Of a stretch of DNA of 64,000 bases, positions 1,329 to 54,000 are shown one piece after another. Within the stretch, counting starts at the first letter, position 1, and every line of letters starts with the position of its first letter. Below the pieces are notes generated by a model. It made no database searches. It saw only the letters and a list, made by a program, of their open reading frames with translations, and had not been told where the DNA came from. The stretch is from Lytechinus pictus. Lineage: Eukaryota. The DNA is taken from positions 30,258,001 to 30,322,000 of the forward strand of contig NC_087251.1 of assembly GCF_037042905.1 (NCBI RefSeq), given 5' to 3'. Both the position numbers and the translations under genes were made by a program.

Positions 1329-3801
1329 GTAATTGGAGGAGCTCATGACATTAAGAAAAATGATCCCGCATATGGGCTTTCAACTCAAGCAGTATTTGTA
1401 CGTGAAATTTAACATTGTCATTGATGTGTTATTATTTTTTTTGTTCAAGGGCCAGGTAATGTTACAAATTTTGTAATAATTTGTAATAGAGATTTTGTCC
1501 GTGTGTGTGTTTTTTTTCCCAAAAATCCATTTTGACAATTCATAATAAGCATATAGATATAGCCATACATCATTAACCTGATCATGGTGCATTATTTAAA
1601 TTGTTCATTCTGAAATAATTGATGTAATCTTGATGATGAACTTAGACTTAGAGATTTATAACTTTGGTCTTTTTTTAAAAGAACATTTACTTTGCACTTA
1701 AATGATTATAAGATGATCTGTCAGTATGACAGATCAACTATTAATTTCGTCCGAATTTTCTTTTTATTTATTTTTCATTATTTGATTCACAAGAGGACAA
1801 TCTGATTTGTTATCTTCAAAGAAATAATGATTTATTAATTCCCATTTGATAAATGATTCTTAATTTAATACCATTATGAAAAGGACAATTATTTCAAATA
1901 ATTGAGATTGAAGCACTTTAAGTGTGTGATAGGTTGTTAATAATAATTAATGATAGTATGTTCTGCCATAGTTGTACATGTTGGACATACCTGTCCTGAA
2001 TGCATCTGCCAATACTCCTTTTGCCAAACAGAATTCTGGGTTACATCTATGTTCTTATTTGATTTTTTTATTAAAAAGTTTAATGCTTTCATTATGATAT
2101 TGTAATTTGTAAGTATTGAAATGTATTTGGGATAGAACAAACGTCTTTCACTACATAAATGAATTTACAAACTAAGAAAATTAAACTGACAGAATTTTCC
2201 TGAAACATTCTCTTTCAAAGCAACGTGCTTTGGATTTTGTTGTTGGGGTGTTTTGTTTTATCTTATTAATTATTATTTATTTATTATAATTGTTTATTTA
2301 ATTATTATGATTTTTTTTTGGGGGGAGGGGTATATTATACCAATTTCTAAAATTTTTAAAAGGCTACTTGAAAATTGTGACTTTATGTTTGGGGTCACAA
2401 TTTCATCAGATTTGATTAAAACAAACTCCTTGTTTCTTCTTAACCAGCACAAGGAAATCATGACTTGGTACATGTATGAAACCTGAATTAGTTTTAGTAG
2501 TGGCATGCAAATTGTGCATAGTCATTGATTGCCCTCACCTGTACTTCGTGCAAAATATATTAAATAATCGTCATGTGATGGATGCATACATGACAAAAAC
2601 ATGATAAAACAGTTATGTGCATGGGAGAGTGCACATGCCTTGTTCTAGTTATGAATTGCCTAATTACTTTTCTAATATGGTCTAGAGCTGTTAATTTTTT
2701 CAATAAGAGCAGGAAATAATTACAATGTGTCTTGTATTTCCATGTGAAAGTCAAATACTAAATTTCTTCATGCAAACACATGAAATCACCACTTCACTCT
2801 CATTGCATGATAATATCATAGAGGCATATGCATCTATTATTGAAACTGACATCTGTTAAAAAGTGAGTATTCATTAAACCTGTATTGTTGTATTTTGCGT
2901 CTTCTTAAAGATCAAGTCCATTCCAGAAACGTGTTGATTTGAATCCATAGAGAATAATCAAACAAGTATAATGCTGACAATATTATTAAATAAGAACGTT
3001 ATTACCAGACTAGTTATGACAAAGTTTTGCTTATTTTTCACTAAACAGTTAGATGTACAACTCAGTTATATGCGAGTGAGAGTCAATTATGTCCGTCATT
3101 CACAATTTCTTTTATTTTTATTGTTTGATTTATAAAATATTTCAATAAATTTTTACAGATCTGACAATAAGGTCACTTTTGGTTGAACCATAAAATGTTA
3201 AAACAATGGTAACTCCAGATGTTCAGGGAGAAATAAAACTTTATTTCACATGACAACAAAGAGAAAATTAGAATATTTAATATTTCATGTAATGAAATAC
3301 AAAAGAAATAGTAAACGGATGATTCCATCAGTCTCCTCATTTGCATACCAACCAGGATGTGAATATGAATTTTTGTGAAATAAAGCTAAAATTTAGAATG
3401 TCATAACTTTCTTATTTAACATCTGATTTTTTTTTTCAATGGAATACAAGATTTTTACTTACTTTTTGATTCATGTTTAAATTACCAAAGTTCTTAGTAT
3501 TGTCCTGAGAGCAAGCAATAATCACATGGTTGAAGTGTCATATTCAGAACCAGACCTTACATTTTTTTAATATTTAAAGGGCAATGCCTGTTTTCTTTTC
3601 ATGCACATTTCTTACATGAATTAAACGAAAAATAAGAAGGGCACTACATATATTCATGGTCAATCAATGGGACATCCAAGTCAGGCCATGGTCATGGTGA
3701 CTTTGGATTAATTTCAGCAGGATAGTTCATTTATTGCTTAGCCAAGAGTATAAATTCATATAAACATGAATAGTTATTATCTTGTTGCTGTATCATTGCA
3801 G

Positions 3802-3948
3802 AATAATCACCAAGCATCTTTGCTGAACTCAACTTCCTTTAAATCTGTGGCGAATGCAGTCAATGTACAAGATCTCAAAAGAACTGATTTGAACCCTCTA
3901 CTCATTACAAGGGTTCCTGATACACCTGGCAGCAGAGCGGCACGTGAA
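3802..3948 (+). CDS. QPCTL: Glutaminyl cyclase coding exon 2
   Basis: Acceptor TTGCAG, donor GTAAGT, 147 nt. Encodes ...DLNPLLITRVPDTPGSRAARE, matching the QC 'L.PLL..R.PG..GS' segment. Confidence 0.92.
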
Positions 3949-5355
3949 GTAAGTTCTTTTTTTTTTTTAATTAGAACAGTTTGTTTTCCATGGATGAGAA
4001 GGACCTAATGGTTTCCCCACTATTGATTGCCCTCACCAATGCTGGCTTGCCCTCACCAATGCTGGCTTGCTTCCGTCATCAAGGGTTTACACTCTATGTA
4101 CATGTATGAAGAATATGTATAGTGCCTATTCATTTGTATTATATGCATTTGTGGTCTTATCATTTTCTCTTGATTGTTACTTAACTTGCCCAGATTTGAT
4201 TTCTTACTCAATGAATTGTTCTCATTTGATTTTTCAAAGTAATTCACCCTTGTTTCTATTGGCCATTTTACATTTTCAAACATAATCCAGCAGCCTTTGG
4301 TTTCATGATGCACAGGAAACAGAAATTAACAATCCCTATTGTGTTAGGCAAACAAAAGTTGATTCTTATTGGTTTGCACTTTGCAGTGCAATAATAGTAA
4401 TATTTTACAATATGTCCAAGCACAGATATATCAAATTACTCCTGGATGTATACAATGTTATTTTCTTCCCAAATACATAATTTCATCAAAGATTGCAAAC
4501 TAAATCCACTTGAACACATTTTTATTTCACATTTTCTCACCATTAAGGGAGATTTGCGAACAACTTACAAATTATACATTTTGTTTTATATTGATTATTA
4601 TAATAACTTCCAACAACCTATACGTGCGTAATATTTTGTCCTGCTTGTGAAACATGATTCCTGAAAATATGATAGATTGATCATTGATTGAAGTTTCCTG
4701 TTTCTCTCTTTTCTCTTGTCCTTTAATAATTCTAAAGTGCACGTTAAGAGTTTGTATGCGAGGCCTAACTAATGCTCTCCTATAGAACTCAAGGGCATGT
4801 AACTCATAAACCATGCATGCCATGCCAATATTGTTACAGCTTATCCTCCCCCTTCTTTCAGTTTCAAACTAATGTTGTGCCAAGTTTGATTGGAGGACAG
4901 CTGTTTATTCATGGTCTGAAATAAGCTTTATTCACCAGAAAGATGACTGTACAATTGCCACATTGTGTAGACATGACTTTTGATTCAGTGCCATTATTAT
5001 TTAATTTTTTCAAAATAGTATTCAGCAAGGGTTTGACTGAGATTATTATTATTGCTATTATGATTATATTGTTGTTATTGTTATTATTATCATTATTATT
5101 GTTTTGTTGTTGTTATTATCAGCATTATTAGTTTGTATTAAGTCATTTATATTATTTATTTCTTTCATTCTTTATTTATTTATGTATGTGTTTGCAGTTA
5201 TCATAGTTTGATAACAGATCAACTGATTTTCAAACAAAGTGTCATCCAATCTATCCTTTGTGACTCAGTTTTGTCTGCTTATAGAGATTTATTATAGAAT
5301 GTCATCATTGCATTGGAATTACACCAACACATATGATTCATTCATTCCTTTGCAG

Positions 5356-5634
5356 CACATCATAGGGAAGCTGACCAGTATTGGAGGATGGGACATAAAT
5401 CAACACACATTCCAAGACACTACTCCCTTGGGCGTAAAATCATTCACCAACATCATTGCAACAGCCAACCCAAGTGTCAAGCGGCGTCTGGTCCTTGCCT
5501 GCCATTACGACAGCAAGTACTTTAAACGTCATGAGTTCATCGGAGCTACTGACTCAGCTCTCCCCTGTGCGCAGCTGCTTTATTTGGCCCGATCCCTGGC
5601 AGAGCCCTTGAGGCGGGCTAATGCTACAAACCCT
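5356..5634 (+). CDS. QPCTL: Glutaminyl cyclase coding exon 3
   Basis: Acceptor TTGCAG, donor GTAAGT, 279 nt. Encodes [24 protein letters not shown] and [12 protein letters not shown] (Zn-ligand Asp and both disulfide Cys of M28-family QCs). Confidence 0.96.
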
Positions 5635-5674
5635 GTAAGTTAATATGCTGCTGAAGAATGTTTTAGCTAATCTG

Positions 5675-37016: not shown

Positions 37017-38871
37017 ATATTCATTTTGCCGAGTACTTAAAGTCTTCCATTTCAGAATATCATGGATATACTAGGATGACGTATGCAAATATGGATCAAT
37101 TTCCAGAATAATTCTTCCTGCATGATTTTGTAGCTTTTGCAATAAATTCAAATATTTTGTTTAGCCCTCTCAATTTAAGATCTCTTGCCATATTACTTTT
37201 TAATCAAGACATGAAAGGAAATCATTAGACTGATTTTTCAATGACTACATTATCTGGTAATTCAACTCTTGGAATACCAAACTCATTTTAAAGATTAGAA
37301 TCATAGATTTGGGAGAGAGTGTGAAGGAAAAAAGGCCAGGTCAATATTGAAAGAGGACCATGAACTTTGTAAATTAGATGAGAACATCCAATGGTTTTAT
37401 GATATTATTTATTTGCGTACATAAGGAGCGTGAGGCCATGTCCCCTAATTTTCCCCACTAACAAGAGAAATGAGAAAATTGCAGAAAAAAGAAGTGTGAG
37501 ATTTCTTAATTTTTTTTTCTTTATCTGAATATCATGCCAAAATATATCACTAAATTAGATTTTAAATGTTATTTCTAAGTTCAAAATTTTGGCTGGCTCG
37601 CTAGAATTTTAAGAAATTATGTCACACACGTCATGCTGTGCCCCCTCAAATCTCTCGGACTCTTCTCATCACGCCACTGATATTATCGATACAATTCAGG
37701 TTATCAATGTTCAAATGAATGAGGGGTTAGAAAAACAGACTGATGGCAATCATTTAGCGCTGAAGATATTATCGGGAACGTTGATGTATTTTTTTCAATA
37801 TTATCTGAGGTTGTGATCGTGTGAAATGGGCTCATGAGTTCGTGAGTCGAATTATGACAAGATTATCATTTTGATCTTTGATTTGTAAAAAAAAAAATCG
37901 TTTATGCACCTTGAGCTAGATATTACCCTCCATATTAATAAAGTACAGAGTCTACTGCAACCAACACACAATTCAAACCTTATGCATAATTTGTATAGAT
38001 ATTTCTTTCCATGAGTATTTTATGTTGAAGTTGATTGCATTTATGAATTATGATTTACTGTTTTGATTGCTTACCAACCATACGCTTTCAATGATGATGT
38101 AAACAACTTCCTAAACTCTTGAACATTAGCAATATGTTCAACAATGATTAACAATTTCATTCGCTTTTAATTTCAAGTAATAAAATCAAATGAGATGTAC
38201 ATTTTAGATTGAATTTTTCATGCACAGTATGATTTTTTTTTTCTTCCAAATTGATTCGGAAAGTGATAAACTTAAGGCGGGGACTAACTGGAAATGTCTT
38301 AACTAGACATTGTCCCAGGCGTGCTTCCAAGAGAAGGTTGAAACAATTCAAAACATTGGACCCGGATACATGATTCTATTCAATTCAACCCAAACTATAT
38401 ACAGCCTGCAATCTATGGGTGCTGGACATCCGTGTCGATACAATCTTCCATCTTATCATCCATGTTAAGTCAGCATTGCATTGTGGTTGAATGTATGAAT
38501 TTAGATGCGTTGTACTTTATTATGTAATGTCGCAATCAACTATAGGCATACCCTCATTTGTAAGCCCATCCCTTACTCATATTTATATTGAGCGTATACA
38601 AAATAGCTTTCATTTTCATGAGGTAAAAGGACTATATCTATCGATATCATGCATCAAGCTGACCATCATTACTTATCGTGCTCATAACAAATGAGAATGA
38701 GATACAATAGCAGACCTACGGCAGACATGATTGTATAGTTTTAAAAGCACCATGACTATAGATATGAAACAAATTTAAAGGGCTAAAACTAACTTCAATT
38801 AGTTTTGAAAGCGATATGCATCTGATTACATAGTTTTGAAAGCACTATATGACTAGGTTATATGATCCTAC

Positions 38872-39883
38872 CTCTCCATGGCATATCCATCTGCAGTGAT
38901 AATCTTCTGAACTCCGTTGATAACTTATTCGACCTTGGTGATACCAACGTTGACGTTGATGACAGTCCCACCGAACTCCTTCTTAACACCGGGGCGTGTC
39001 CATTACCATGGTTACTACTACCAGTCGGAGTCGACGTCGAAACTTGAGGCGGGTGACGCCCTTTATAGGATGACTTGGTAACCGCATCATAGTCCCCAGT
39101 ACCCACACCCATCACGCTCCATCTCCAACTGGGGCTACTACCCCCATTTTGAGATTTCTTTGGGCGTCTTACAACTGTCTTGATCCCCGAGTAGGTTTCC
39201 AGTTCCTCGACGGGGCTAATTGGACTGAGGCTCCGAGGAGATGGCTGGATGTTATCATCCCCGCGAATGGCATTGCTCCTCTGAAGAGGTGGTTTGTTAC
39301 GAGGTGATGAGGAGGATGATGAGGAGGAGGAGTTCCTGTCAGCGTCAGATTCTTCCGATGAACACGCATCTTCCATGTTTTCTGAGATGCTGCTACAAGC
39401 GCTGCTGCTTGATCTCACCAGACTACGGCGGTTGTACCGTAATTTATCTTTCGTAGGTGAGCTGAAATGCAGATTGTTATTATTGCTGCTCAAATCCTCA
39501 AACTTATCCCTCATTTGGCTTACTCCCGATTCCAAGGCATCCAAGTCCAAATGCACTTCTGATCTTCCCTTATCACTCATGTTGGTTGGTGAAGACCGGT
39601 GAGATCCTCTCCTATCAAGTTCCATCATGTCGTTGGATGATGATGATGAACTCAACGATGAGTTAGGAGAGCTCTCAGGACTGCTGAATGGGCTATAGCT
39701 TTCACTAGAACTATTTCTGCAGTCGCTGGTTTTGCTGGTGGCACTACTGATCGATAAAGTCCTTGCATCACGCACCGTCACGGATGGCAGCTGATGAAAA
39801 TCGTTCTGGCCACACGTTGACTCATTGTCGACAACCGTTTCTTGGTTTGGTGTTAAATCACAACCATCCTGACACGAAGCCAT
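38872..39883 (-). CDS. Uncharacterised Ser-rich, low-complexity protein, coding exon 1 of 2
   Basis: About 1 kb of open frame, GC-rich against an AT-rich background. First ATG at 39883 (the ORF track starts upstream at a TTG). Phase-1 donor GTAGGA at 38871 after ...MDMPWR-G. Confidence 0.82.
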
Positions 39884-42800
39884 AGCTGACTGAAAGCGAT
39901 CCAACTGCTACGGGGTTAGTTTCCACAAACTTTACCTGATAGGCAATACGTCTGCTGAGCAAAGTGCATTACTATCATCGAACTTTGGAACAAAGTGCAT
40001 CAAAAGTTTTGTCCTCGAAGAGAGAGAGAGAGAAAATAAAAATGAATCAAGCCTACCCAGCAGAGCGAAGTGCGTGTGAGTCAACTAGGTGTGCAGAAGT
40101 TTGCAAAACATTTACGCTCTGCGACTTATGTTTGCTTTTTATGTGTTTGATATATACAGACTTTATCCACCTTTTACCTAATTCGACTAAAATCAGCTGG
40201 GCTATTGAAAAGCGATTTTTGAAAGCCGCACTTCCAATATTTGAACAATGGTCCCCGAAGCCTTTTGTGACCTCAGCAACCCACCCTATTCTTCACGTCC
40301 TTTCATCCGTTGGGTTAACGGAGAGGTCGCAGTTTGAGATCCTTATTCTATCATATCCAATATGGAACGAGGATATGATGATCAATATAGTTCCGATGGG
40401 ACTGCGTACTTATTAGCATTGTTGCTCATAAAATCAATAAGGTCCATCCAGTTTAGGGTTGATATGGCGCGTGAAATGTAAATGGATCAATGATATCTCA
40501 GTCTGCATACTATAGCGGGGCTATGCATGTATAGATCGCTTATTAAATCTTCGATCATGATCCGTACCACAATTAAATTCTACGTTGATAGGGTTGTCCC
40601 GCGGGAGGGTTGTCCAATTCCCATAATAAAATGACTAAATAAACATTATGAATAAATGAGGTGCAAGCTGTTTTGAAACAAAGTTTCTAATATAGTCCCG
40701 GAATAAGGTTCATTAATTGCAATCAAATATCGATTAGTGAATAAACAAATAAGTACGAAGAACTTTGCTTGTTTTGTTGAATTTTAATGATTCTCATATA
40801 ATAAAAGTATATGAATATTTGTTTGATTGGTTTTTAATAATTCTCAAACCGATAAAGGTATGTAGAAGACGAGATCTGTATAAACATCCGACGCTAACTC
40901 TGACACGAGAGGGGGTAATTTGTAAACGTTCACATATAGCTCTTTAATTTCACATGACTTCAAACATTTCCTTTTCATTGAATAAAGCGGGCGAGTTATG
41001 TTGTTGAAACATCTCAACGATTGTCCATCTCCAGTTATAGTTCTAGTTGCAAAATGACAGGGGCGTAACAGGGGGTCGGTGACCGGGGGGGGGGGGGGGG
41101 CAGGAACCAAAAATTTCCCGATCATAATGGGATGAACAGGCAATGGCGTAATGAGGCAAACATTTTGAGGGGGCCAGATATGGCGTATCGGGCAAGAAAT
41201 ATATTTAACAAATAATATATTTCACCCTTCCCTCTTTCCTTTTCTTTTTTTTCATGGTCTGTACGCCACTGTGAACAGGATTTTATTCATGATTGTGCGC
41301 GAGCTTAAGATAGATTTTGACGTGATATTCAGAAAAAATATTTTACATTTTTTCTTTGCTTTTCTTCCTTTCCTCCTTTCTTTTTTGTTCCGGGTTCTAG
41401 AACTTTTGGCGGTCATGGTTCAACCCCTTCCATACGACAGTGTTATGCGGATGATATTATAGCCATTTTAAACCTTTGATGGCCGCTATTATATTTTCAA
41501 TCAAATTGCGTGTTTATATATTCACACCACACATTAATTCAACGCAGTTGCGTAGTAATCCAAATATTTTACGGGGCACACCATAGCAAATGTGAGAAAA
41601 TTTGTTTTAAAAAATCGCCAGCGAGCGAAGCGAGATATATAGAAAGAAAAATGGCCTTTTGAAATGAAATTCTAATTTTGTGATAGATTTTTACATCATA
41701 GTCAATAACATATCATATTTGTTTGCTATTCCTTTCATTACCTCTTTTTTTCATTTATTTCCGCTTGCGGCTGAGGACCCCCACCTGTACGCCAGTGATT
41801 CAACGTAAAGCTTAATGCAGGAAGGGTCCATACAGGGGCCCTTTATAGAGCCCTTTGAAGGTTACAGATGAAGAGGCCCGACTGCAAGGGATCTTGGGCA
41901 GATCGAGCCCCTGGTAGCTTTGGAGATTTAGCAAGCTTAGGATAGACTTTATGTAATGTTACATGCCATCCATCTTACTTCCCGTTCTTTATTTTCAATC
42001 CTACATTCATTTCCCGCTTTCGTTTGCCTTTTTGTAATTTTTCAATTTATTTCCCTTTCTTACTGATCATGCTAATGTATTACTGTGTTTCTGGGTTATT
42101 TTGTTCTTTCTCACATTCTCCTTTCCCTCATTTTCCCATTTTCCTTCCGTTTTTCCTTTTATATGTTTCTTAATTTTCTTTTCACTTTTCCCCTTTCCCT
42201 CCCCCTTCCTCTTTTTTCTTTCTTTCTATCTTTCTTTTCACTTCAAAATTACTATTGATTAAAAAAATACTAATGATGATTAATCATAGAGTATATAGTT
42301 TGAAATGCATCATGCATCATGATGAAAATTCCATATATGAAATATAAAAAAAGTTGTTTTTACATGCTGGTCGATTTGCCTATATGAAGGAGCCGGTGAC
42401 ATCAGCCACTCTTCATTTCAAATATGAAATATTTAATTTTGTCTTCATTACAAAGTGATATAAGTATTGAATCCTATCTAAACACGTGGAATTGCCTTGC
42501 CATCAGTGCCACCTATTATCATTCAATGGAGAGCTTCTTTATGGTCAAATATTGAGAAAATGAAATGAAACAGAATGGAATAGTAGATGGCATAATCGGA
42601 TATCTCAGTTGCATGTCACTGGTGTTTTGTATGTCATTGTTTTACGAAAATATTGGAAACTTCAAATTTCACAACTCTCTTTTTTTTTTACATCAAATTT
42701 TGATGAAATTTCCAGCACTATGCCTGTATAAATTGTTCTTGTTTTATCAATTTTTTAAAATATATATATATTTTTTTTGCTGTGGTGGACAAGCACTTCA

Positions 42801-44072
42801 ATGATGAATTATGGTAGTGAATAGTGATAGTAATGATGTCCAAAAGTTGACAGCTCAATTCATGAATCTTACAAAGAATGAAAAGAGCTTACATGATTAA
42901 AAATTGCTCATTTTTATCCAATAAAAAGTTTCATTTATGCAATAAAAATCCAACTGCTAAACATGACAATGTAAATATTGTGTATCTATATATAATTCTG
43001 TATTTATTTAAAAAAACCTTTGGATGGTACAGACTGCACACTAGATTTTTTGGAAGTAGGATAAGACCACACAACTAGTATTCTATGTTCAGAACTCATA
43101 ACTAGCATTCAAAATCAATGACCAAATTGACTTCGTAATTTTTAAATTCCTTAAAGCCCATGATTTGAAGTATTAATGAGTAAAAAAAGATTAAAATAAT
43201 CAGTGCATGGTATAAAAAAATGAAAACAACAGATAGCAATTAAATTATGTTTACATTTTTTGTTAGTAAAAAATAATAATGATGTTAACTTTAAAAAAGA
43301 GTCTCCTGAAGTACATAGCTCTGCTTTTTCACATTCTATTCTCAACTTCATGGTGACTAGTTCAGCCGAGCCCTTTACACATATTCATGTACTGATGTAA
43401 TCATAATAAATCATGTCTAACATCTAATTTGATAATTTGACACGTAAATAGACAAAATAAACTCCTTTGGTTAAAGAAATGAACGATTTTATGATAGACA
43501 TTTATACACAATATCTTATATATAACCTATTGAGTCTACTCTAAATTTCTCCATAATATACTATTTTATAATACATCACACTATGAAATCACAAAGGCAC
43601 AGTTTAAGGGGGAAATGGAAATTTCTTGAATTAGATAATGTACATGATTTACATGCTTATCACATAATATTATATGGAAGAACTTTCATAAGAAATTTGT
43701 CAAATTTGATATTACTGTTGTTGAAAGACAAGTAACAAATAAAACAACTCTAAGACATTGTAACACAGTACAGGGCTATCAAGAAACTCATGTTTTGTGA
43801 ATGACATTGGCCTGGAATCAACTCCTGAACAAAGGTGACAATTGTACATCACCAGAGGTGTTTAAGGCCAAGATCAAAGAAAGCAACCTACATTTCGACT
43901 AAACTCATCTGCGCTCTCTCCTAACTTGGAGCATTATACTTAACAGTCCAGCGCCAGATCCTTTCCCATATTATATTTTTCTAATCAGTTATAATTTTAT
44001 ATTTGTGCAACTGACTAGTACATAATCCTGAGATAAGTAATAACCTGTTATTTCCATGCAAGTAAAAAGGAA

Positions 44073-44456
44073 CAGGGTTCCCAGCTTTTAAAGAAAACAA
44101 AATTCTCTGATTTTTCCCTGATGAAGTTTAAAATTTCCCTGATAATTAATTAAACCCATTCCCAGTTTCGCATGTTTTCTAAGTTGTTACAGTGAATTAC
44201 AGTAGTATTTTCAGTATAAAAACAATGTAAAACTAATTAGTACCACCATAACCAGTCATTCAGTGTATGTTGTTTTGATATGGAACAAACTATAACAGAT
44301 TCTGACTGACTACCTCGCTTTTGACTTTTGGGCTGATCAAAATTCCCTTATTTGAGGCATTTTCCCCTGATTTGAGGTATTGTTTATCGAATTCCCTGAT
44401 TTTTTCCCTAACTGGAAAAAAGTAAAATAATTTTCCCTGATGGGCTGGGAACCCTG
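44073..44456. mobile_element. hAT-like MITE
   Basis: CAGGGTTCCCAGC...GCTGGGAACCCTG TIR, multiple subterminal TTCCCTGA motifs. No clean TSD. Confidence 0.65.
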
Positions 44457-47001
44457 AATGTAAGTATTACTGATTGGAGCATGAATGCATTAAAGGTACA
44501 CTCCTCTCAATGCATAAATCTTCTTATATAAGGCAAACATTACTGTTATTATATTTTTTTCATGCTTATAATAGAAATGCATAACAGTTCTTAAAAAGGA
44601 TTGGAATGCTTTTAATTCAGTGTTAAATTAATTAATAGTGACTAACATCACAATATTTTAACTCAGCAAATGTTGTCTAAACAATAAACATCAGAGCAAT
44701 AACTAAGGTTCCAATTTGAAATCTTAACCTCTTGCTCCAAACAAAAACAATATAAATTTATAAACCAGAAGTAACAAAAAAGGTTTAATCTCCTGATCCA
44801 ATCATACAATTTGTGCACATACTATATCATTCTTCACCCCTCTTTATGGAGGTTTAAACCTTCTCTTTTCTCTATCTTCTTTGGAAAAATCAGAGCCAAG
44901 AAGATGTCAAAGCTCGCCCATTACAGAACATATTTGTAAAGTTTACAAAAAAATAAAACTTATGCACACTATAGGTAAGCCTATATATCGTTTTAGGTCA
45001 TGGTACTTTTACGACACAAGTCTTTGAAGCTGGTGATTTCCTGCTCTATTATCGAGAACTAATACTACTATGATGAAGCAGTTAAAAGTCAGGAACAGTA
45101 CTCAATGACTGAGGCCATGTTTTTCTATTTCTTAAAACACATCCATGTGTGGATACTTAATACTAAAGCAAAATAGTTATTATAAATATTACTTTCATTT
45201 TCAGAAAGTGATATATATATAGAAGCATAATTCCTTGCCATATACTTTAATATTTTAGAAACTGATAAACCAGTATGATTCTTTGCAATAATCTGAAGTC
45301 CCGACTTCCTCACTTGTCTATCTACTTTCTACTTGTAATTCTGAATGAAAAACGATCAAGAAATACAGGTAGCTCCAAAATAAATAAGATTATCTAACAT
45401 CATATAAAATGAAATACAAAGAAAGAGCATTAGCACAGAACAGAGTTCAAAACACCCGCATCTCCAAATCAAAATCTAAGTTTACATATCATCACATGAT
45501 ACATTTCTAGTGAATACCACAGATCTGAAAAAAGTACTTGTAATTACATTAAATTATGCACTGTATGATTACTTTTTAGAGGCTCAATAATTAGAATCGC
45601 TCTTAAAATAAGACTGAAGACTCTCTATACAATAAGTACAAAACTTATAGTTCTATGAAATTAAAGCATCTTTACTTAATCTGATTTTTTTTAGTAATTA
45701 CTTTACTAACTTTAAAAATATATCACTTGTCTTTTTCTTAAATACAAACACAACAAGTTAGATAATTGATTGTTTTACTGGATTGTCAGATTCAGGTAAC
45801 AACCATGGACCCTACAACCAATGGAAAACGAGAACAAGTCCTACTTTGGTCATAACATTTCCACCGTCACCTGACAATGTGCATATTGATGATGACATTC
45901 ATTTGCTGTGAAAATGTTAATAAGTAATCAGGAATTATCAGACAAAAAAATATTTCATCTCCATCTTTCACAGTATGTATGGTCATTTCACACCACTGAG
46001 TAGACAGGAATAACCATCGTTTCAGGGGATTTATTTAATAATTTCTGACATTTTACTATGTATTGGTGAGTGGAACCAACACAGTACAGCGGAACAGAGA
46101 CTGAAGCTTTTGGTCTAACCACTGAGAGGAATAGCAAACCTGAAATCATGAAAATTGATTATTACAGAAGTGGATACCGGTGGAAATGAATCTGACCTTG
46201 CTTTAATTTGAAAAACACCCATTTTCTCCTGACCTATCATATTTTAAAGCAGGGATGGGATAATTTTTTTAATTAATTTCAAAATCATTGTGTTACAACT
46301 TACAGCCAAATAATCATGTCTTTATTGTATAAACTATATGTACTAGCAATTTCATACTGAAATTCTCATGACCATTTCTAGACATAGACCTGAGCAAACA
46401 GACATATGCACATCAAAGATTTTAATTCTTCTGAACTGACTGCACATGCATTTTGTAGATTTCACAAGACACAGTTCTGGCTCATTTATTGCAGACTTGG
46501 TCATGATTAGATCAAAGGGTTGCAACATGTGTGAAATGACATCAGGTGAATGAATTCAATATCCATCAGCGTCCATCTTTCATACATGTAGGGTCCATGT
46601 AACAACTATCAGAATTAAACATTGGATTAATCTACTTTACAAGGAATGTTTGCAGTCACAGATGAATTTCTATGCTTGTGATGTTCCAATACAAACTTGC
46701 ATCACCAAAGATGAACAATGCATCGTGTTTGCGCCAAAGATTCAGCTGATGCATTTACATATACAGTAAACATTCTTTTAAATCATATTGCACATACTGA
46801 ATCTGACTTCTGTACTTCACACACAGCACGAATAAACCACCTTGTTCACCTTTTTCACTATTATCTGTTTGCGAAATAAAACACACTCCTGGAATATTGA
46901 CAGCAATCATGGAAAGTGCAGTAGTTTACCACATCTCAGAGAGTAATACCTAAAAGGAAGAGTGTTCATCTAAGCTGCACTGGTCATATGAGCAAAATAT
47001 G

Positions 47002-47308
47002 CTACTTTGGCACATACTGTCCAGTGTCTGGGTCCCTCATCGCTTGTCTCCATGGCATCACCAAGCCATTCAAAGTGACATAGATCCCATTGGATGGCAG
47101 GCACTGGAGGGCTCCAAGGGCCATGCCGATGTTAAAAGCAGCATCAGAGTCTTTGAATTTTTCCGGAAGTAATGCACCTGTTAGGACGATTCTCTTTGGT
47201 AGGTTCTGATGGCCAAGGAATGATGCCGTTGACAGGAGGGTGTCTGTTCCATGGGTGATTAGAATGAGCTTCTCACTGCAGTCATTGCATACTGTAAGAA
47301 GATTCAAC
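47002..47308 (-). CDS. Short-chain L-asparaginase-like protein, coding exon 3 (terminal)
   Basis: Acceptor TTTCAAG. Encodes ILITHGTDTL, IVLTGA, SDAAFNIG, GIYVTLNG, then TAG. Joined CDS 513 nt = 170 aa, N-terminal asparaginase domain only. Confidence 0.92.
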
Positions 47309-47756
47309 CTTGAAAGAGAGACAGTTAAAAACATGAGAGCTTCAAATGTATTCAGCTTTATAACAGTGATTTAAGTCAAAATTATTTGTGGCCCAGACAT
47401 GGAGTACAGTCTGTTTGTGCACTGCTATGTAACCTTACGGAAAAGGCGCTATATCAAATAACTATTGGATTGGATAATTTGTACATCGATAGGCTGAGAA
47501 AAGGCTTCATATGAAGAAAAGATTTGGGTCATTTGTAGAACTAGGACTGTAAACTTTTTTTAATACAAATATTTGATGCTTCTTTTATCCCATCACAACT
47601 CCAGTTAGTTTCATAACAGATGCAGATGCTTATTGGTTTTCATTTTAAATAATGACAAGATTTATGACAATTTGGTAAAAAAGAGGATCCCCATCATGAT
47701 AAATACATATACTGCATACTAAAGAAAATATATCACTCTAAAGATTTTTCAATTTA

Positions 47757-48505
47757 CAGTTCGACCTCTCTTATCTGGACACGTTGTGACCAGCACCAAT
47801 TCGGATAAGGGATTTATCCGGATCTGGGAGACCCAATATTAAACACACACAGCTGCTGCCTCCCCAACGGCAGTACATAGCTACGTACACGTTATCTATT
47901 GTAGTGGGTGTACAGACAGTATTCACTGCAGTGTCAGTTCAAATCATAGGCAGTATTTTTACAGAAATGAAATCGATCGATGGCCAAAACTGTTCGATAA
48001 TTTACCTGCTAAAATGATTGAGGTATACATCAAGCATACCTCAAAAGAAAGAGAATGACTCAATGAAACTAAGTTTTACAATTAGATCATCGCGGCGGGT
48101 AACGCAGCTTCGCAATGTCAGCCATTGTTATACTGACTGAAGGCTCAAACATGATAGATGACGCTGTCCGTAATGAGGCCTAGCGTTAGCTAGCGAGACA
48201 TGTGTTGTTTTTCCCGGGAAACAAAAAGACAACGTGATGAAATGTTTGCGCTGCGCCCTGATTTACTGGAAAATTATCCTGCCTAAGTTCTTTCGGTGAC
48301 TTGGGTGAGATATTTTTATGAAAAATAATGTTGTTGTAGGTAGACTATATTGGAAAATATATGTAATCAAAGTGAGTATGCGCATAGGATTGAGTTTAGA
48401 TTGAAATATCATTTCCTCACGTACTAGATTGAATTGAAAAAAAAAAAAATCTCAGCAAGTGTGCGTTCGGATAATAGAGAGATCTGGATAAGAGAGGTCA
48501 GACTG
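47757..48505. mobile_element. Tc1/mariner (pogo/Tigger-like) MITE in the last asparaginase intron
   Basis: TA-CAGTTCGACCTCTCTTATCTGGA ... TCTGGATAAGAGAGGTCAGACTG-TA. Confidence 0.8.
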
Positions 48506-48933
48506 TAGTTATTATTATCAAAATTCCAAATTACTCAAGTTGGAAGCATGGTAGTCCACAGCTCCTTCAATGATAACACATCAATTTTCAAATGTTTGAG
48601 GAGTTGAATGAGGGTACAAAAAGTTATTTATGTAAAGTTTCATAACTTTTCAATTCACATCAAAACACATCATCTGATGTTGTACCCTTTATAGTCTTAC
48701 GACTACAAAAAAAAAGAAAAAAAAAGTTTGTGGAATATTGCAATAAACTTTTGGTCAGGATCTACTTCTCATTTATTTGATCCTGGAATGTAGTGGAATT
48801 TTCAGTGTTACGCTCATTGGCTTTTTATCTCTATTTATGCAGGTCGACTTGTTGGAACTGGCCTTTAAGAACCTAAAAAAAAGAGGAAATGATACAGGTT
48901 ACACAATCAAAATTCAATTCTTTGATTTATTAC

Positions 48934-49093
48934 CTGTCCTCATCAGAGATATCCTGGCTATCTTTCTGACACACAGTCTCATATCTAAATCTGAGAGGCA
49001 CCTTGTGCTGTTCTAAGATGCCCCTAGCTGCACTCTCCCCAATCTCAAAGGCATAAACACCTTTCCTCTTTGGATAAGCCTTGTCAATCGTTC
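48934..49093 (-). CDS. Short-chain L-asparaginase-like protein, coding exon 2
   Basis: Acceptor CTGCAG, phase-2 donor GTAATA, 160 nt. Completes TGGTIDKAY and encodes ...VCQKDSQDISDEDR. Confidence 0.9.
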
Positions 49094-49653
49094 CTGCAGA
49101 TCAAAAGAGAGAGTGAGAGAATAACAAATAGAAAAACTAAAGAAAATCCTAAGAAATCTATGTGAAGGAAATGTTAAAAATCCAAATGAAAAATTAGAAT
49201 TGAAAACAATTTCTTATTCAATTTTTACCCTATACGATATGCAAGATCAGTGGCATCTCTTATGTGCTGCAACCAGAGAGCCCCAACATTCATGACTTCA
49301 AAAGTAATAGAAAAAATATAAAAGAGAAAAAGAGGGTTATAGATTTAGAGGCCTAGCTGTTATTAAAAAAAAAAAAAAAAAAATTCTCCTTGCCCTCCCA
49401 TCCCATCCCTAGATAAAAATCGCCTGGCAAAGCGGCAATATGCCTTGAATTGAAGTTTTCCAAATGCTCCTAAATCAAACTAAGTTATTTTCAACTGATT
49501 AAGAGTTCGTCAAGTACATTTTCAGTTGGTTTTTTAACTGGTTAAGATATCATGTAGTATAATGAAGTATAAATTTTATAATATAGACAAGTGAAGTTCA
49601 ATAATACATGTAGATGATTGAAAGCATATTCCAACATTCTTCAAAACACCTAC

Positions 49654-49699
49654 CTCCAGTTTGAATGATAAGAACTTGCATTGTAGAATTTAGTTCCAT
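49654..49699 (-). CDS. Short-chain L-asparaginase-like protein, coding exon 1 of 3
   Basis: MELNSTMQVLIIQTG-G, phase-1 donor GTAGGT at 49653. Second in-frame ATG at 49681. Acceptor TTCAG at 49727-49723 implies an upstream non-coding exon. Confidence 0.85.
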
Positions 49700-49968
49700 C
49701 TTGAGTGATCCTCCATGAAAAACTGAAGATGGAAAGGAAATAAAAAAGAAAACCCTGTTAAGTTAGGCATGCATATCTAATCAACAATTATTTGAATGAA
49801 AATAAAAATACAATCATGACCAATTAAGCCTAATAAGAAATATTACATCACTCAGGTCCTCGTAAAAAGACGTCATCATCATGATCAACATCAATTAAGT
49901 TCTCAAAACATCACAAATTCAATTCACAGCATCAGAAATCAGCTAAGAAATTATTTCTCTTGCCTCAC

Positions 49969-50095
49969 CTACATGACATTATGACATGAGCGTTAACTTT
50001 AAGCGAGACTCAAATTTTAAAAGCAAGAAGTGAAGAACCACGCCGCGGCCGTATAACGATCAACGATGAGAAACAAGATGGTGGCGTAAACATTC
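49969..50095 (-). promoter_or_regulatory. Candidate TSS region / non-coding first exon of the asparaginase-like gene
   Basis: Local CpG enrichment, YY1-like CAAGATGGTGGCG near 50074-50086, and a good minus-strand donor AG|GTGAGG at 49968. Inference only. Confidence 0.4.
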
Positions 50096-51262
50096 GGGCA
50101 AGTCTCCCCCGTCTTTTCATAATATTTTTCTCATTTTTTTAATGAATTCTCGTTTAAAAATGAAATCGATAGCGTAGAAATGAAGTTGTATCCCATTTTA
50201 GGGCTAGATCTTTTGGAAGGAAAGTATATCTCGGACTCGGGGGCGAAAGTTTGAGGTTTTTTGGTGGTAGGCTACATGTAGATTGCAATGGAATCCCTGG
50301 CTTCATAGAGAGTAAGCATAATAAGTTACTTTAGTAAATGATTTTTACTCTCTTCTCTAGAAGCCTCCTGGCTGCGCACACGTAATCCCCGCGACTATAC
50401 CTACCTATATGCCGTGCCAGCGGCTAGGCACTCGAACTCATGGCGCTTAGATCACGGGTCCGTAGCCCGGCCGGTGGACGTGGCGTGGCCGGGGTGCAAC
50501 ACAGCTCCAGCCGGCAGTTTAGTCACTCACAGAAATTACAGCCACAGCTCAGGGAAGGTACCACAGCTGCTTCAGTGATTGTTACGTTTTTATCCTGAAT
50601 CTTTTCTTACCCTTATTATGTCTACATGATATCTATCATAAAGAAATCCAGTCATTACGTACCCTTAGTCTTTTTTTAGTCTCATAATCGAATCCAAAAT
50701 CAAGTTTTTCAGCATGTAACTTGTTATAGTTTTAGAAATTAGCGACTATTAAATGATTGGTGCCATATCTGTTACGGTATACCAATTTGCTGATCAATCC
50801 ATTTCTATCTACCTTTTTATTTATTTATTTTTTTTAGTTATCTAATGCTTTATCTAACTTTTCATTGCTTAATTTATCTTGAATGTTTTCTAATTGATTT
50901 TTTTTATTTATATGTTTTATTGGGTCAACACAAACCAAGTATATACAAAAATAACAAATCATACATAATTAAACTATTCCATATCATTAGAAAAAAAAGA
51001 GAAAAAACAAGTGGAGCGCCTCTGGCAGTCTCAACTGCATCGCGCGATTCAATATAGCAACAGTGCTGACTTTGAAACTACAGGCTATAAAAATAAGTAA
51101 TCATATCATTAGAAAAAAAAGAGAAAAAACAAGTGGAGCGCCTCTGGCAGTCTCAACTGCATCGCGCGATTCAATATAGCAACAGTGCTGACTTTGAAAC
51201 TACAGGCTATAAAATAATTATTCACAAAAAACACCATTCATATAATGATACAATGCTACGTT

Positions 51263-51324
51263 CAGTGGCGTACCTGGGATTTTTCACAGGGGGGGGGCAA
51301 AACCGTCCGCCAAAAAATTTGACA

Positions 51325-51366
<42 letters not shown>

Positions 51367-51543
51367 TCTTCAATCACAACTGAAGGATTTTGTACCCAAA
51401 AAAAATTTGACAAGCTCGTCAGGGGGGCAATAAAGGTCTTCAAGCTCGTCAGGGGGGGCAGGTATATGACTTTTGTATGGGATGTGGCTCGTCAGGGGGG
51501 GCAGAGTGCCCCCCCTGCCCCCCCCCCCGTAGGTACGCTAGTG
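51263..51543. mobile_element. hAT-like MITE of the CAGTGGCGTA family
   Basis: CAGTGGCGTACCT...AGGTACGCTAGTG with a perfect 8-bp TSD GCTACGTT. Related G/C-tract elements near 18970-19264, 23870-24138, 41058-41271, 41547-41797 and 52648-52948. Confidence 0.8.
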
Positions 51544-54000
51544 GCTACGTTCATTGACAAAAAAATGACATTTGGCCTTGATCATGCGACCTAAGACTTG
51601 TCCCCTATATCCATATCTTATGAACTATATCTATAAACTTTGAAAGTTATATGACAGCAATCTAATAATTGATTGTTACTGATTGATTAACTAATTGATT
51701 CGTTGATTCAATTATTTTTATTTTGTATTTTTTGATGTTTTTATTTATTCACACATTAACTATCGATTTTATTTACCCGTTAAAAGCTCTTGATGCTAAC
51801 TTCATGCTTTGTTGGTGTAATAATTTGACGAATTCGTAGATCTATTAAACTATATTTTCTTACCAATTTCATATTCCCCATTGATTAAATTTGTTACCTC
51901 CACCCATCCATCCACCCGTCAATGCGCCCATGCCAATCTATCCATCTATTCATGCATGGCCCATAGGTCCATGTATCATGCATTCCCGTTCCTGTCAATA
52001 ATTATTAAATTTATGGTGGGCTAATTGAATCTGTTGATTTCATCTATCATCAATTAATTGATATTATCTACTCGTTACTTTTTAAAACCATTATTATTGT
52101 TTATCGCCATTCTATACAATATGATCATTTACTTTATCTACTAATTTCACTCCACTTATCTTTTTTGTTTAATTTTCTTTCGTTAACAGTGTGGCCTTGC
52201 TATGGGGCTGCACAATTCGAAAAAATGCAAAAGAAATGATTAAGAATTTTCTTGTTCATTACAGTTGTTATTTTTACTTTTTCAATTTTTATGAAGAGCA
52301 AAATTAGATTTCAGTTGGAGCCCGCCTCCCCTTCTAGGGACGCCCTAGGCAGAAAGCCCATGCAAAGTTAATATCAAATTTGTAAAATGAACGCAAACTT
52401 ACAGGAATTATATAATCCGATAACTTCTTTAAACCAATATGGCCGTATAATTACCCCCCTCATGATCTCCCCTGAAATTTTGAAGAAAAAAAAATTATGT
52501 TTCTGCTGAGATGCTCACAATTTTTTTAAAGCTACAGTTAATCAAATAGCAATTCCTTTGTGATAACCTTTGCTCTTCGTTTGTTCATATATATATTTTT
52601 GAACATTTTGTGTGTTTTTACGGCATTGATATCATCTGCGGTTAAATCACTGGTGGATCCAGGGGGGGGGGGGGGCAGCCGGCCCGTGCCCCCCCCCCCC
52701 CCCTTTGAGAGGCGCAATTAAAGTTTGTAATGTAAAAATACCTTTAAAACAGAAGTGTGCCCCCCCCCCCGGAAAGTGAAGACCTTTTTTATCATTTTGC
52801 TTATCAAATTGTTTCGTTAACTAAATACCCAAGTTTTGTTTAAAACCATTTTTTTTTGCTTGTCAAATTTTTTTTGCTTGTCAAATTTTTCCTCAGGAAA
52901 ATGTGTCCCCCCCCCCCCCCCTTTCCAAAAAGCTTGGATCCGCCCCTTGGTTAAACAGAGCTGTCCGACACTGACCATGCAGTATTTGCAATTGATTTCA
53001 AACTTCAGTTGCAATTTGCAAGTGATATACTTGAACTACACATACCACTTTAGAGGTTTAAAGAACCAATTAAAGAACAAGATCAGTCGCAAATGATTGC
53101 AATAATTATGATTGGTTTAAAGACTTAGCCTTGCATGCGATCGATTTATAACATCTGTTTGCAGTATTTCTCATTCCAAGTGGGGTGAGGTGTCATCAGG
53201 TGGGGGATGGTTAAATAGTGGTGGGGCCCGGGACTATCAAATTGGGGTTTTTATTTTAGTATCGCTGTATTGTTTTCCGCTGATCAACTACGTTGGTTGC
53301 ACAAAAAATGCCAGCAATTGAAAATAAATCCCCCGAACTAACAGTTAATCAATTATGTCTTAATTGACTTTTCACTAGATGCTGAAGTTGCATTTTCGAG
53401 AATGAGTTATGGGTTATTTGATTGATTTACATACATGTAGTTGTTATAATTTTCATAGAGGGTATTTTTAAAATGAAATTCGACTCCCCCTCACCACTTA
53501 ACTTGGCTGTTTATGGGCACTTGCCCCCACTTGCCTCCCTCACAACGCGGTTTTGTTACATTGCTTACAGATCATTTAAGTGTATGACGATCTTTAAATT
53601 GGCAACAAAATACCAAGCAAATAATAATGGCTTATTTCAATTATTGACAGAACGTTAACGTGCGTGACTTGCAACCCTGGCCCTGAGAACAACTGCGACT
53701 GGCAAATGATATTTCAGGGGATGATTATCAATTGTTAATTGAAATTTTACGTCGTTTGAGATCAAATCTTCTATCAAGAGATCAAGAACAACTATTTACG
53801 TAGTTTTCCGAGCTGCCAGGAAGGTGAAACTTGAACCAAGTTGAAGAGAGCTCGAGAGTCTTGGCCGAAGATACATCGCACCAGCCACCACCGCCGCGCC
53901 GGAACGTTAATCCGATCTCGACGAAGCCAAGGCCAAGGGGGAAAAAACAACACCCAAAAAGCAAAATCTGCTCTCCCCAAACCAAAGCTAAGTTTTGATA

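Follow-up and report, generated by a model that had tools for sequence, protein, structure and literature searches.

Within a stretch of 64,000 nucleotides from the sea urchin Lytechinus pictus (NC_087251.1, positions 30,258,001 to 30,322,000; we call the whole stretch the window and count positions from its first letter) lies a gene on the minus strand that is real, spliced and expressed, and whose product, judging from its sequence and from the fold predicted for it, is a short-chain class 1 asparaginase (scASNase) of the type of RrA from Rhodospirillum rubrum. We consider it probable, all parts taken together, that this is a nuclear echinoid gene whose product is a cytosolic scASNase of 170 residues, and that it belongs to an old eukaryotic family, passed on vertically within animals with many losses. 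In other words, the gene is an old and patchily kept eukaryotic one and not a recent bacterial import, because the animal members group together among eukaryotes and because monophyly of the animals or of all eukaryotes was not rejected by approximately unbiased (AU) tests (p 0.29–0.75).

Asparaginases serve as leukaemia drugs and as enzymes of the food industry, and the short-chain type was defined only in 2024, with one bacterial member studied. What, then, does a sea urchin locus add? It is a verified, expressed animal scASNase; its family is widespread in invertebrates and protists; and the animal genes are old. It also raises a question: are those short asparaginases that carry arginine in place of the catalytic Lys158 of RrA (Arg-type members, in what follows) active, and on what substrate? 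If they are active, they would constitute a new catalytic variant and offer a naturally short, eukaryote-derived asparaginase. The gene itself was already in RefSeq and the family has been defined since 2024, so our additions are modest: how broadly the family is spread over animals and protists, and the arginine/glutamine signature of the eukaryotic branch. A preliminary description of the locus, made from its letters alone, had offered an “overlooked,” patchy eukaryotic family as one of two explanations. Patchy it is, with homologues in ten animal phyla and several protist lineages; “overlooked” was an overstatement, as RefSeq annotates the genes and PMC10949315 mentions eukarya.

A gene of four exons

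The Lytechinus gene has four exons, three of them coding. The start codon (49699-49697) stands in the second exon (49654..49722), behind the 5′ leader bases 49722-49700 and at the head of a coding part that we read from the sequence as 46 nt (49699-49654, with the ATG at 49699), comprising codons 1-15 and base 1 of codon 16. A GT-AG intron of phase 1 (49094..49653, 560 nt, GTAGGT...TGCAG) then splits the Gly codon of TGG/T. The third exon (48934..49093, 160 nt) encodes TIDKAY, with Lys20 and Tyr22 of the family, and KDSQD, with Ser61 and Gln62; it is followed by a GT-AG intron of phase 2 (47309..48933, 1625 nt, GTAATA...TCAAG), placed by junction reads, and by the last exon, whose coding part (47002..47308, 307 nt including the TAG at 47004-47002) supplies THGTDT (Thr90 and Asp91), LTGA, SDAAFNIG and Arg160. 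Joined by script, the three coding exons give an open frame of 513 nt and 170 codons with zero internal stops, in which the motifs TGGTIDKAY, KDSQD, THGTDT, LTGA and SDAAFNIG are all found. The joined protein is identical at 168 of 170 positions to an entry in nr, “uncharacterized protein LOC129264587 [Lytechinus pictus]” (P0003), from which it differs by V28G and Q137L; the gene model is thus already annotated in RefSeq. The sequence and this match bear out the three phase-consistent exons, the 170-aa protein and the five motifs of the preliminary description.

RNA evidence came from raw reads of two stranded RNA-seq runs labelled as the same species (X19 and X20, about 6/100 of each having been read) and from Logan contigs of two more (X1 and X15), all on positions 42000-53000 of the window. 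The junction 47308/48934, across the 1625-nt intron, is crossed by 37 raw reads in X19 and 44 in X20, and the junction 49093/49654, across the 560-nt intron, by 35 and 41; both recur in the X1 and X15 contigs, so that the RNA-seq check which the preliminary description had proposed came out in favor of its exons in all four data sets. The first mate lies on the plus strand in all junction reads, as expected for minus-strand RNA in the usual stranded libraries.

The span first given for the gene, 47002-49699, holds for the coding part and leaves out a non-coding first exon on the minus strand. In the major form, this exon occupies 50663..50725 (the 5′ end near 50725 is approximate, with 6 molecules ending there in X20), and the joint 49722>50663 is found in 19 and 22 raw reads of X19 and X20 as well as in an X15 contig; in a minor form, the exon extends to 50405 before splicing, with the joint 49722>50405 in 3 and 5 raw reads and in an X1 contig. 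Both leader introns have GT-AG borders on the minus strand, and in both leader forms an in-frame stop stands upstream of Met1 with no in-frame ATG in between. The leader of the main transcript (49700-49722 plus 50663-50725, 86 nt) also contains three short upstream open reading frames (ORFs), which are 16, 6 and 8 codons long; the last of them overlaps the start codon out of frame.

At the other end, the 3′ untranslated region covers at least 46094..47001 on the minus strand, in a 1604-nt X1 contig that joins 46094-47306 to the upstream exons. Coverage there drops stepwise below ~46400: depth in X19/X20 is 38.6/43.5 over 46771-47137, 21.2/22.6 over 46404-46770 and 9.1/7.9 over 46037-46403, and AATAAA or ATTAAA occurs at 46490, 46426, 46326, 46273, 46207 and 46039. 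At certain fixed positions (49057, 47092, 47248, 48999 and others), the letters of the RNA runs depart from those of the window, which is ordinary allelic variation between individuals; at 49057, A>C in 53/53 and 61/61 reads converts Val28, by our reading by hand, to the Gly of the RefSeq protein.

Does the protein end where its frame ends? With 170 aa closed by a TAG in the last exon, it has the single N-domain and the length (~160–175 residues) of an scASNase, and it lacks the union of N-domain and Asparaginase_C in one polypeptide that defines the animal ASPG and type I enzymes. Among the 15 RNA joints listed (there are 39 weaker ones besides), none leads from the last coding exon to lower coordinates. 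The Asparaginase_C profile PF17763 finds two places only in the whole genome, near 9.78 Mb on contig C7 and near 13.04 Mb on contig C4, each a few kb from strong PF00710 exons (132 and 125 bits vs 45 bits for the short gene). These are canonical long asparaginase genes with N- and C-domain exons (C7:9776949-9785939 and C4:13039024-13051410), 66% identical to each other over a 107-column N-domain exon. The short gene has no hidden C-terminal domain, just as its letters had suggested. In a genome of 811.7 Mb, the LOC129264587 protein matches a single locus, which is this gene.

Family, fold and proposed chemistry

The last coding exon (47308-47002) by itself matches Pfam PF00710 (E 1.6e-12, 47.8 bits against a cut-off of 22.5), and as a query it finds as its best PDB sequence matches the 185-residue R. 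rubrum chains 8uor, 8up3 and others (best E 4.6e-14), before any two-domain enzyme. For protein searches with the whole chain and for the fold model, we used the LOC129264587 protein as a stand-in for the joined one. Its AlphaFold2 model (23-row alignment) has a predicted local distance difference test score (pLDDT) of 88.3 and a predicted template-modelling score (pTM) of 0.86, and Foldseek places RrA entries of the PDB at ranks 1–18 of the matches shown (E 1.1e-17, template-modelling score [TM] 0.83–0.91, 32–34% identity), followed by isolated Pyrococcus N-domains and then by ordinary class 1 enzymes. Sequence matches and predicted fold together uphold the early assignment of the protein as a stand-alone N-domain asparaginase of the RrA type.

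What is known of the type comes from RrA, which Zhang et al. (2024, PMC10949315) treat as the prototype of the cytoplasmic short-chain asparaginases, also termed “class 1 type s” (PMC10949315; IUCrJ 2026, PMC12951835). RrA has millimolar affinity for Asn, does not hydrolyze Gln, and is a homotetramer of two tight dimers; Thr16, Tyr21, Thr87, Asp88 and Lys158 are critical, and the K158M mutant is inactive. Lys19 is highly conserved in the short-chain family and not in typical enzymes, and Lys158 is described as “only moderately” conserved (all PMC10949315). According to section 3.2 of the same paper, eukarya have scASNases too, “as will be shown in a separate study.” Beyond that clause, we found no literature on eukaryotic or animal short-chain asparaginases in the sources covered, which exclude subscription journals.

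By alignment, the urchin protein has the scASNase residues T17, K20, Y22, S61, T90 and D91. Across 28 named animal proteins, T17, K20, Y22, D60 and S61 are present in every one and T90 and D91 in 27; K20 and Y22 are also found in 80 of 80 named prokaryotes and have no match in E. coli AnsA and AnsB, from which the short forms are parted at a support of 97 in a tree of 115 rows. Urchin Arg160 was equated with RrA Lys158 through an ungapped HMMER alignment and an offset for a 13-residue tag, itself deduced from 185 vs 172 residues.

How might such a protein work? As an N-terminal alpha/beta domain with neither a C-terminal partner nor a signal peptide, it would reside in the cytosol and convert L-asparagine to L-aspartate and ammonia, with Thr17 attacking the amide, Lys20 and Tyr22 serving the proton relay proposed for RrA, and Thr90, Asp91 and Arg160 taking the place of a Thr-Asp-Lys triad. 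It would probably act as a homo-oligomer built on a symmetric dimer. A cytosolic L-asparaginase activity of low affinity is the rather likely case; enzymatic activity, oligomeric state, localization and ultimate origin are all things that we infer. A model of the homodimer scored 0.80 against 0.00 for the best of 3 controls, although RrA dimers had already been solved, and the pass may reflect structures that the predictor has memorized; at least 91% of contacts are common to the runs, the partner has a pLDDT of at least 87, and the interface lies along a helix at residues ~121–140. Of proteins whose solved structure is a pair of one chain, 21 of 30 attain the mark so passed, as do none of 23 whose solved structure is a single chain. 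Among eukaryotic proteins, 17 of 29 attain it (7 of 16 from animals), but only 1 of the 7 without an older solved relative does so, and 0 of 30 single chains. The model speaks for likeness and not for binding.

Distribution, phylogeny and the rival explanations

The family is large. With the last coding exon as query, 255 of 256 candidates lie at E ≤0.001; with the LOC129264587 protein, the figure is 7456 of 7502 candidates (93–298 residues). An exhaustive search of 50%-identity representatives gives 2279 at E ≤0.001, 940 at ≤1e-10 and 48 at ≤1e-30. GTDB species genomes contain at least 548 relatives among at least 592 pattern matches, and 549 of 597 matched stretches of metagenome contigs encode a relative, of which we kept 80 loci, all unsplit full-length matches.

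The 28 named animal proteins fall into ten phyla (Porifera, Echinodermata, Hemichordata, Chordata, Mollusca, Brachiopoda, Platyhelminthes, Nematoda, Tardigrada and Arthropoda). Most are ~160–200 residues long and 47–54% identical to the urchin protein, and they are labelled “uncharacterized,” “L-asparaginase 1-like” or “probable L-asparaginase periplasmic”; the first and last of these labels could now give way to the family name. Besides Lytechinus, the echinoids are Strongylocentrotus (88% identical) and Diadema (76%), and the other echinoderms are Acanthaster, Asterias, Amphiura and Antedon. There are also a hemichordate (Glandiceps), three Branchiostoma species of amphioxus among the cephalochordates, a tunicate (Clavelina), molluscs (Pecten, Argopecten, Ylistrum, two Mytilus, Crassostrea, two Haliotis and Physella), a brachiopod (Lingula), a trematode (Fasciolopsis), a nematode (Plectus), a tardigrade (Ramazzottius), a barnacle (Amphibalanus, where the domain is the N-terminal part of a 481-aa model) and a sponge (Corticium). 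No vertebrate or insect name appears among the named matches, although no dedicated test of absence was made.

Outside the animals, the gene occurs in dinoflagellates (Symbiodinium and Biecheleria), a chlorarachniophyte (Norrisiella), a haptophyte (Phaeocystis, as a member of a cluster), stramenopiles (Hondaea and Incisomonas), an ichthyosporean (Abeoforma) and the EukProt entry “UC4,” presumably an uncultured choanoflagellate. In some protists the short domain is fused to others: PDZ in UC4, zf-BED in Abeoforma, p25-alpha in Incisomonas and, by a weak match, a dual-specificity phosphatase in Hondaea; some of these fusions may be gene-model chimeras. A Pfam scan of eight long eukaryotic forms found Asparaginase_C in none.

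All of our trees are built on a domain of ~160 columns, and their resolution is limited accordingly. In a FastTree of 363 rows, the 24 animals named by then all fall in one clade of 31 rows, with a weak support of 32; the seven rows that complete it are Fasciolopsis, Plectus, UC4 and four without a name. A quick posterior mean site frequency (PMSF) tree of 115 rows, with 23 animals, 10 protists, the 80 best named prokaryotes and E. coli AnsA and AnsB as outgroup, gathers 33 of 33 eukaryotes in a group of 36 rows (SH-like approximate likelihood ratio test, SH-aLRT, 88), which is nested in a clade of 46 rows (99) with Bacteroidota, Ignavibacteriota, Planctomycetota, Patescibacteria and Bathyarchaeia; a purely animal group (88) takes in 18 of the 23 animals. 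A more careful tree of 56 rows, whose bootstrap had not settled (correlation 0.977), parts the 46-row clade from the outer prokaryotes at 100/98, and within it several subgroups mirror the relationships of species: echinoids (100/100), asteroids (100/97), Branchiostoma (100/99), pectinids (100/96), bivalves (80/83) and a deuterostome group of seven rows (93/90). When 28 Arg-type or Gln-type metagenome loci are added (84 rows), all 23 animals, Incisomonas, a EukProt transcript and UC4 form one group of 26 rows (82), inside which there are zero prokaryote or metagenome rows. AU tests did not reject a single animal clade (log-likelihood, lnL, lower by 6.5; p 0.323), nor a single eukaryote clade on 56 rows (p 0.29) or on 115 rows (p 0.751; here the constrained tree surpassed the free quick tree by 23.9 lnL units).

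Two positions in the protein serve as signatures. Where RrA has Lys158, Arg is found in 28 of 28 animals and in all 9 protists that have a residue there, and the 80 named prokaryotes have Lys (69) or Arg (11). These 11 are exactly the prokaryotic members of the 46-row clade, minus two basal Patescibacteria. A catalytic Lys at this position, which the urchin protein with its Arg160 lacks, does not define the family, Lys158 being “only moderately” conserved (PMC10949315). The 323 unnamed rows include 154 with K and 153 with R. At position 62, the Q of DSQD, Gln occurs in 25 of 28 animals and 6 of 9 protists and in 0 of 80 named prokaryotes (Leu 73, Thr 7). We considered the pair Gln62 and Arg160 as a mark of eukaryotes only and rejected it: five metagenome loci carry the pair and are scattered among prokaryotes in the tree, at least three of them (L095, L097 and L108) on densely coding, prokaryote-like stretches (ORF cover 0.88–0.98).

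We conclude that the urchin gene is an orthologue of an old animal gene, and that the animal genes sit among other eukaryotic ones. It would be the echinoid representative of a family that survives in many marine invertebrates, in some others and in several groups of protists; within animals, that family would have descended vertically and disappeared from many lineages. Several things weigh against this account, and we would not hide them. Three genes from Bacteroidota metagenome-assembled genomes (MAGs; L015, L016 and L021) lie within the 36-row group that bears the eukaryotes, and they and some protists interleave with animals in the 115- and 56-row trees. The animals form one clade in 0 of 200 bootstrap trees of the 56-row set, 4–5 changes being needed, and that tree leaves the backbone of the 46-row clade unresolved. 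The groups put to the AU tests were chosen with the trees already in view, and a test that does not reject a clade does not prove it. A rare longer isoform may be among the 39 weaker RNA joints. On the side of function, the literature that we found holds no activity measurement for any eukaryotic or Arg-type member, and the residue whose change to Met inactivates RrA (K158M, PMC10949315) is Arg in the urchin as in the other animals, so that the chemistry or substrate of the urchin protein may differ. As for L016 (from a Crocinitomicaceae MAG), its context is genuinely bacterial, with neighbors (SprB-repeat, PALP, GT2) in compact gene order. There the short asparaginase gene (2751-3242) overlaps by ~70 nt the downstream PALP gene (E 2.1e-74; the two span 2751-4179), and this overlap with a gene for a pyridoxal-phosphate-dependent enzyme hints at a shared amino-acid pathway in bacteria.

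Could bacteria have given the gene to animals? As the preliminary description had it, in the first of its two explanations, a bacterial gene entered animals long ago and gained introns. Transfer into animals fails as an explanation because what was found is broad inheritance across eukaryotes, the very pattern that had been named in advance as telling against it: homologues in ten animal phyla and in protists, with the animals grouping in trees. A more general version, in which marine bacteria gave the gene several times to separate animal and protist lineages, introns following later, draws on the patchy distribution, on named animals that are largely marine invertebrates, on an urchin–bacterium identity (46–50%) about equal to that between the urchin and other phyla (47–54%), on the bootstrap result just given and on the sponge, Physella, the barnacle and Plectus, which shift place between the 105-, 115- and 56-row trees. 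We hold it to be quite improbable, in view of the 26-row group with its animals and no prokaryotes, the deuterostome, bivalve, echinoid and asteroid groups that mirror species, the AU result for a single animal clade and the Gln62 that the animals share and the named prokaryotes lack. Harder still to credit is that the gene reached echinoids alone by a recent bacterial transfer, that bacterial DNA contaminates the assembly, or that an ASPG-type gene of the urchin itself left a truncated copy here, even if the best-characterized relatives are bacterial. It is not contamination, in agreement with the preliminary description, because its RNA is spliced (and stranded), because one of its introns houses a host repeat present in at least 40 copies, and because the locus lies at 30.3 Mb inside a large contig; against a recent transfer stand the orthologues in Strongylocentrotus and Diadema and in nine other phyla. 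Nor is it a truncated ASPG copy, because the urchin's own long forms stand with AnsA and apart from all short forms: in a tree of 60 rows, the N-domain exons of both long genes fall in with E. coli AnsA (95), and a branch at 96 parts four long forms, the urchin's two included, from all 56 short ones. The preliminary description was right to keep it apart from ASPG.

A rival of another kind, which we think improbable though more credible than any of these, is that the fold was kept and the function was not, the Arg-type subclade acting on another amide or being non-catalytic. What speaks for it is that Arg160 is universal in the sampled eukaryotes and rare in the named prokaryotes, that K158M kills RrA (PMC10949315), that position 62 on the substrate side is Gln in eukaryotes vs Leu in 73 of 80 named prokaryotes, and that protist domains are fused to PDZ, zf-BED and p25-alpha. 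Yet the other catalytic and family-specific residues are strictly kept, Arg retains the positive charge, and Gln62 equals the SQ of E. coli AnsB. Moreover, Arg looks like a tolerated natural variant, because about half of the unnamed members have it and Lys158 is only moderately conserved (PMC10949315). We return, then, to an old eukaryotic scASNase, for which an ancient inter-domain transfer before animals is possible. More tentatively, and with the odds against it, one might see the eukaryotic scASNases and their nearest prokaryotic relatives as a distinct Arg-type subfamily, in which Arg stands in for the “indispensable” catalytic Lys of class 1 asparaginases, either an active variant or one shifted in substrate or role, and whose eukaryotic branch stems from one pre-animal inter-domain transfer. 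Eukaryotes may have acquired the gene once from an Arg-type prokaryote, or some prokaryotes may have received it from eukaryotes.

Surroundings of the gene and its known relatives

The 1625-nt intron contains a dispersed non-autonomous repeat of 753 bp (47755-48507, no strand assigned) with terminal inverted repeats of 21 nt (47755-47775 and 48487-48507) that are 90% complementary, and with TA at both ends. The preliminary description had placed a host element in an intron, and rightly so: all 40 scored genomic copies, on many contigs (out of 432 first-look candidates), are 88–100% identical, the locus itself at 100% and the other 39 at 88–93%. The TA ends and CAGT-type termini suggest an element that we take to be derived from Tc1/mariner. 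Across the window, 130 ORFs with a minimum length of 70 aa were compared with Pfam and gave matches only for the asparaginase gene and for one Peptidase_M28 exon, an open frame on the plus strand (5227-5640, E 6.3e-10, to the start of the profile) that is probably an exon of a neighboring animal gene. The longest open frame (38861-39907, minus strand, 349 aa) has no Pfam match; it may be a gene of one exon, or what is left of a transposon. On both sides of the gene, 43835-44568, 50808-51908 and 52643-53000 show summed contig depths of hundreds to thousands with many loose ends and odd joints, and look like dispersed transcribed repeats.

Against what is known, RrA is the closest standard of comparison. 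The two share a single domain of ~170 residues without C-terminal domain or signal peptide, the fold as scored by Foldseek, the TGGT nucleophile and, by prediction, the symmetric dimer, and residue for residue K19 of RrA is urchin K20, Y21 is Y22, and T87/D88 are T90/D91. They differ in that the urchin protein is only about one-third identical (the 32–34% above), has Arg160 for the catalytic Lys158 and has Gln62 where most named prokaryotic members have Leu, in that it is encoded by a spliced animal gene, and in that its subclade is parted from the outer prokaryotic members (at the 100/98 given earlier). With E. coli AnsA and the ASPG-type enzymes of animals (60-kDa lysophospholipase/asparaginase), it shares a homologous N-domain (PF00710), the Thr nucleophile, the Ser and the Thr-Asp pair. 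Those enzymes carry the C-terminal domain PF17763, which the short urchin protein does not, and animal ASPG-type proteins have further C-terminal repeats; the Lys20 and Tyr22 of the short family, in turn, go unmatched in AnsA and AnsB. In size and fold, the urchin protein also resembles the isolated N-domain engineered from Pyrococcus furiosus (PDB 5b5u, 4nje and 4ra6; Foldseek E 3.9e-12 to 6.1e-11), but that domain is a laboratory truncation of a two-domain enzyme, whereas the urchin protein is single-domain by nature and stands nearer to RrA.

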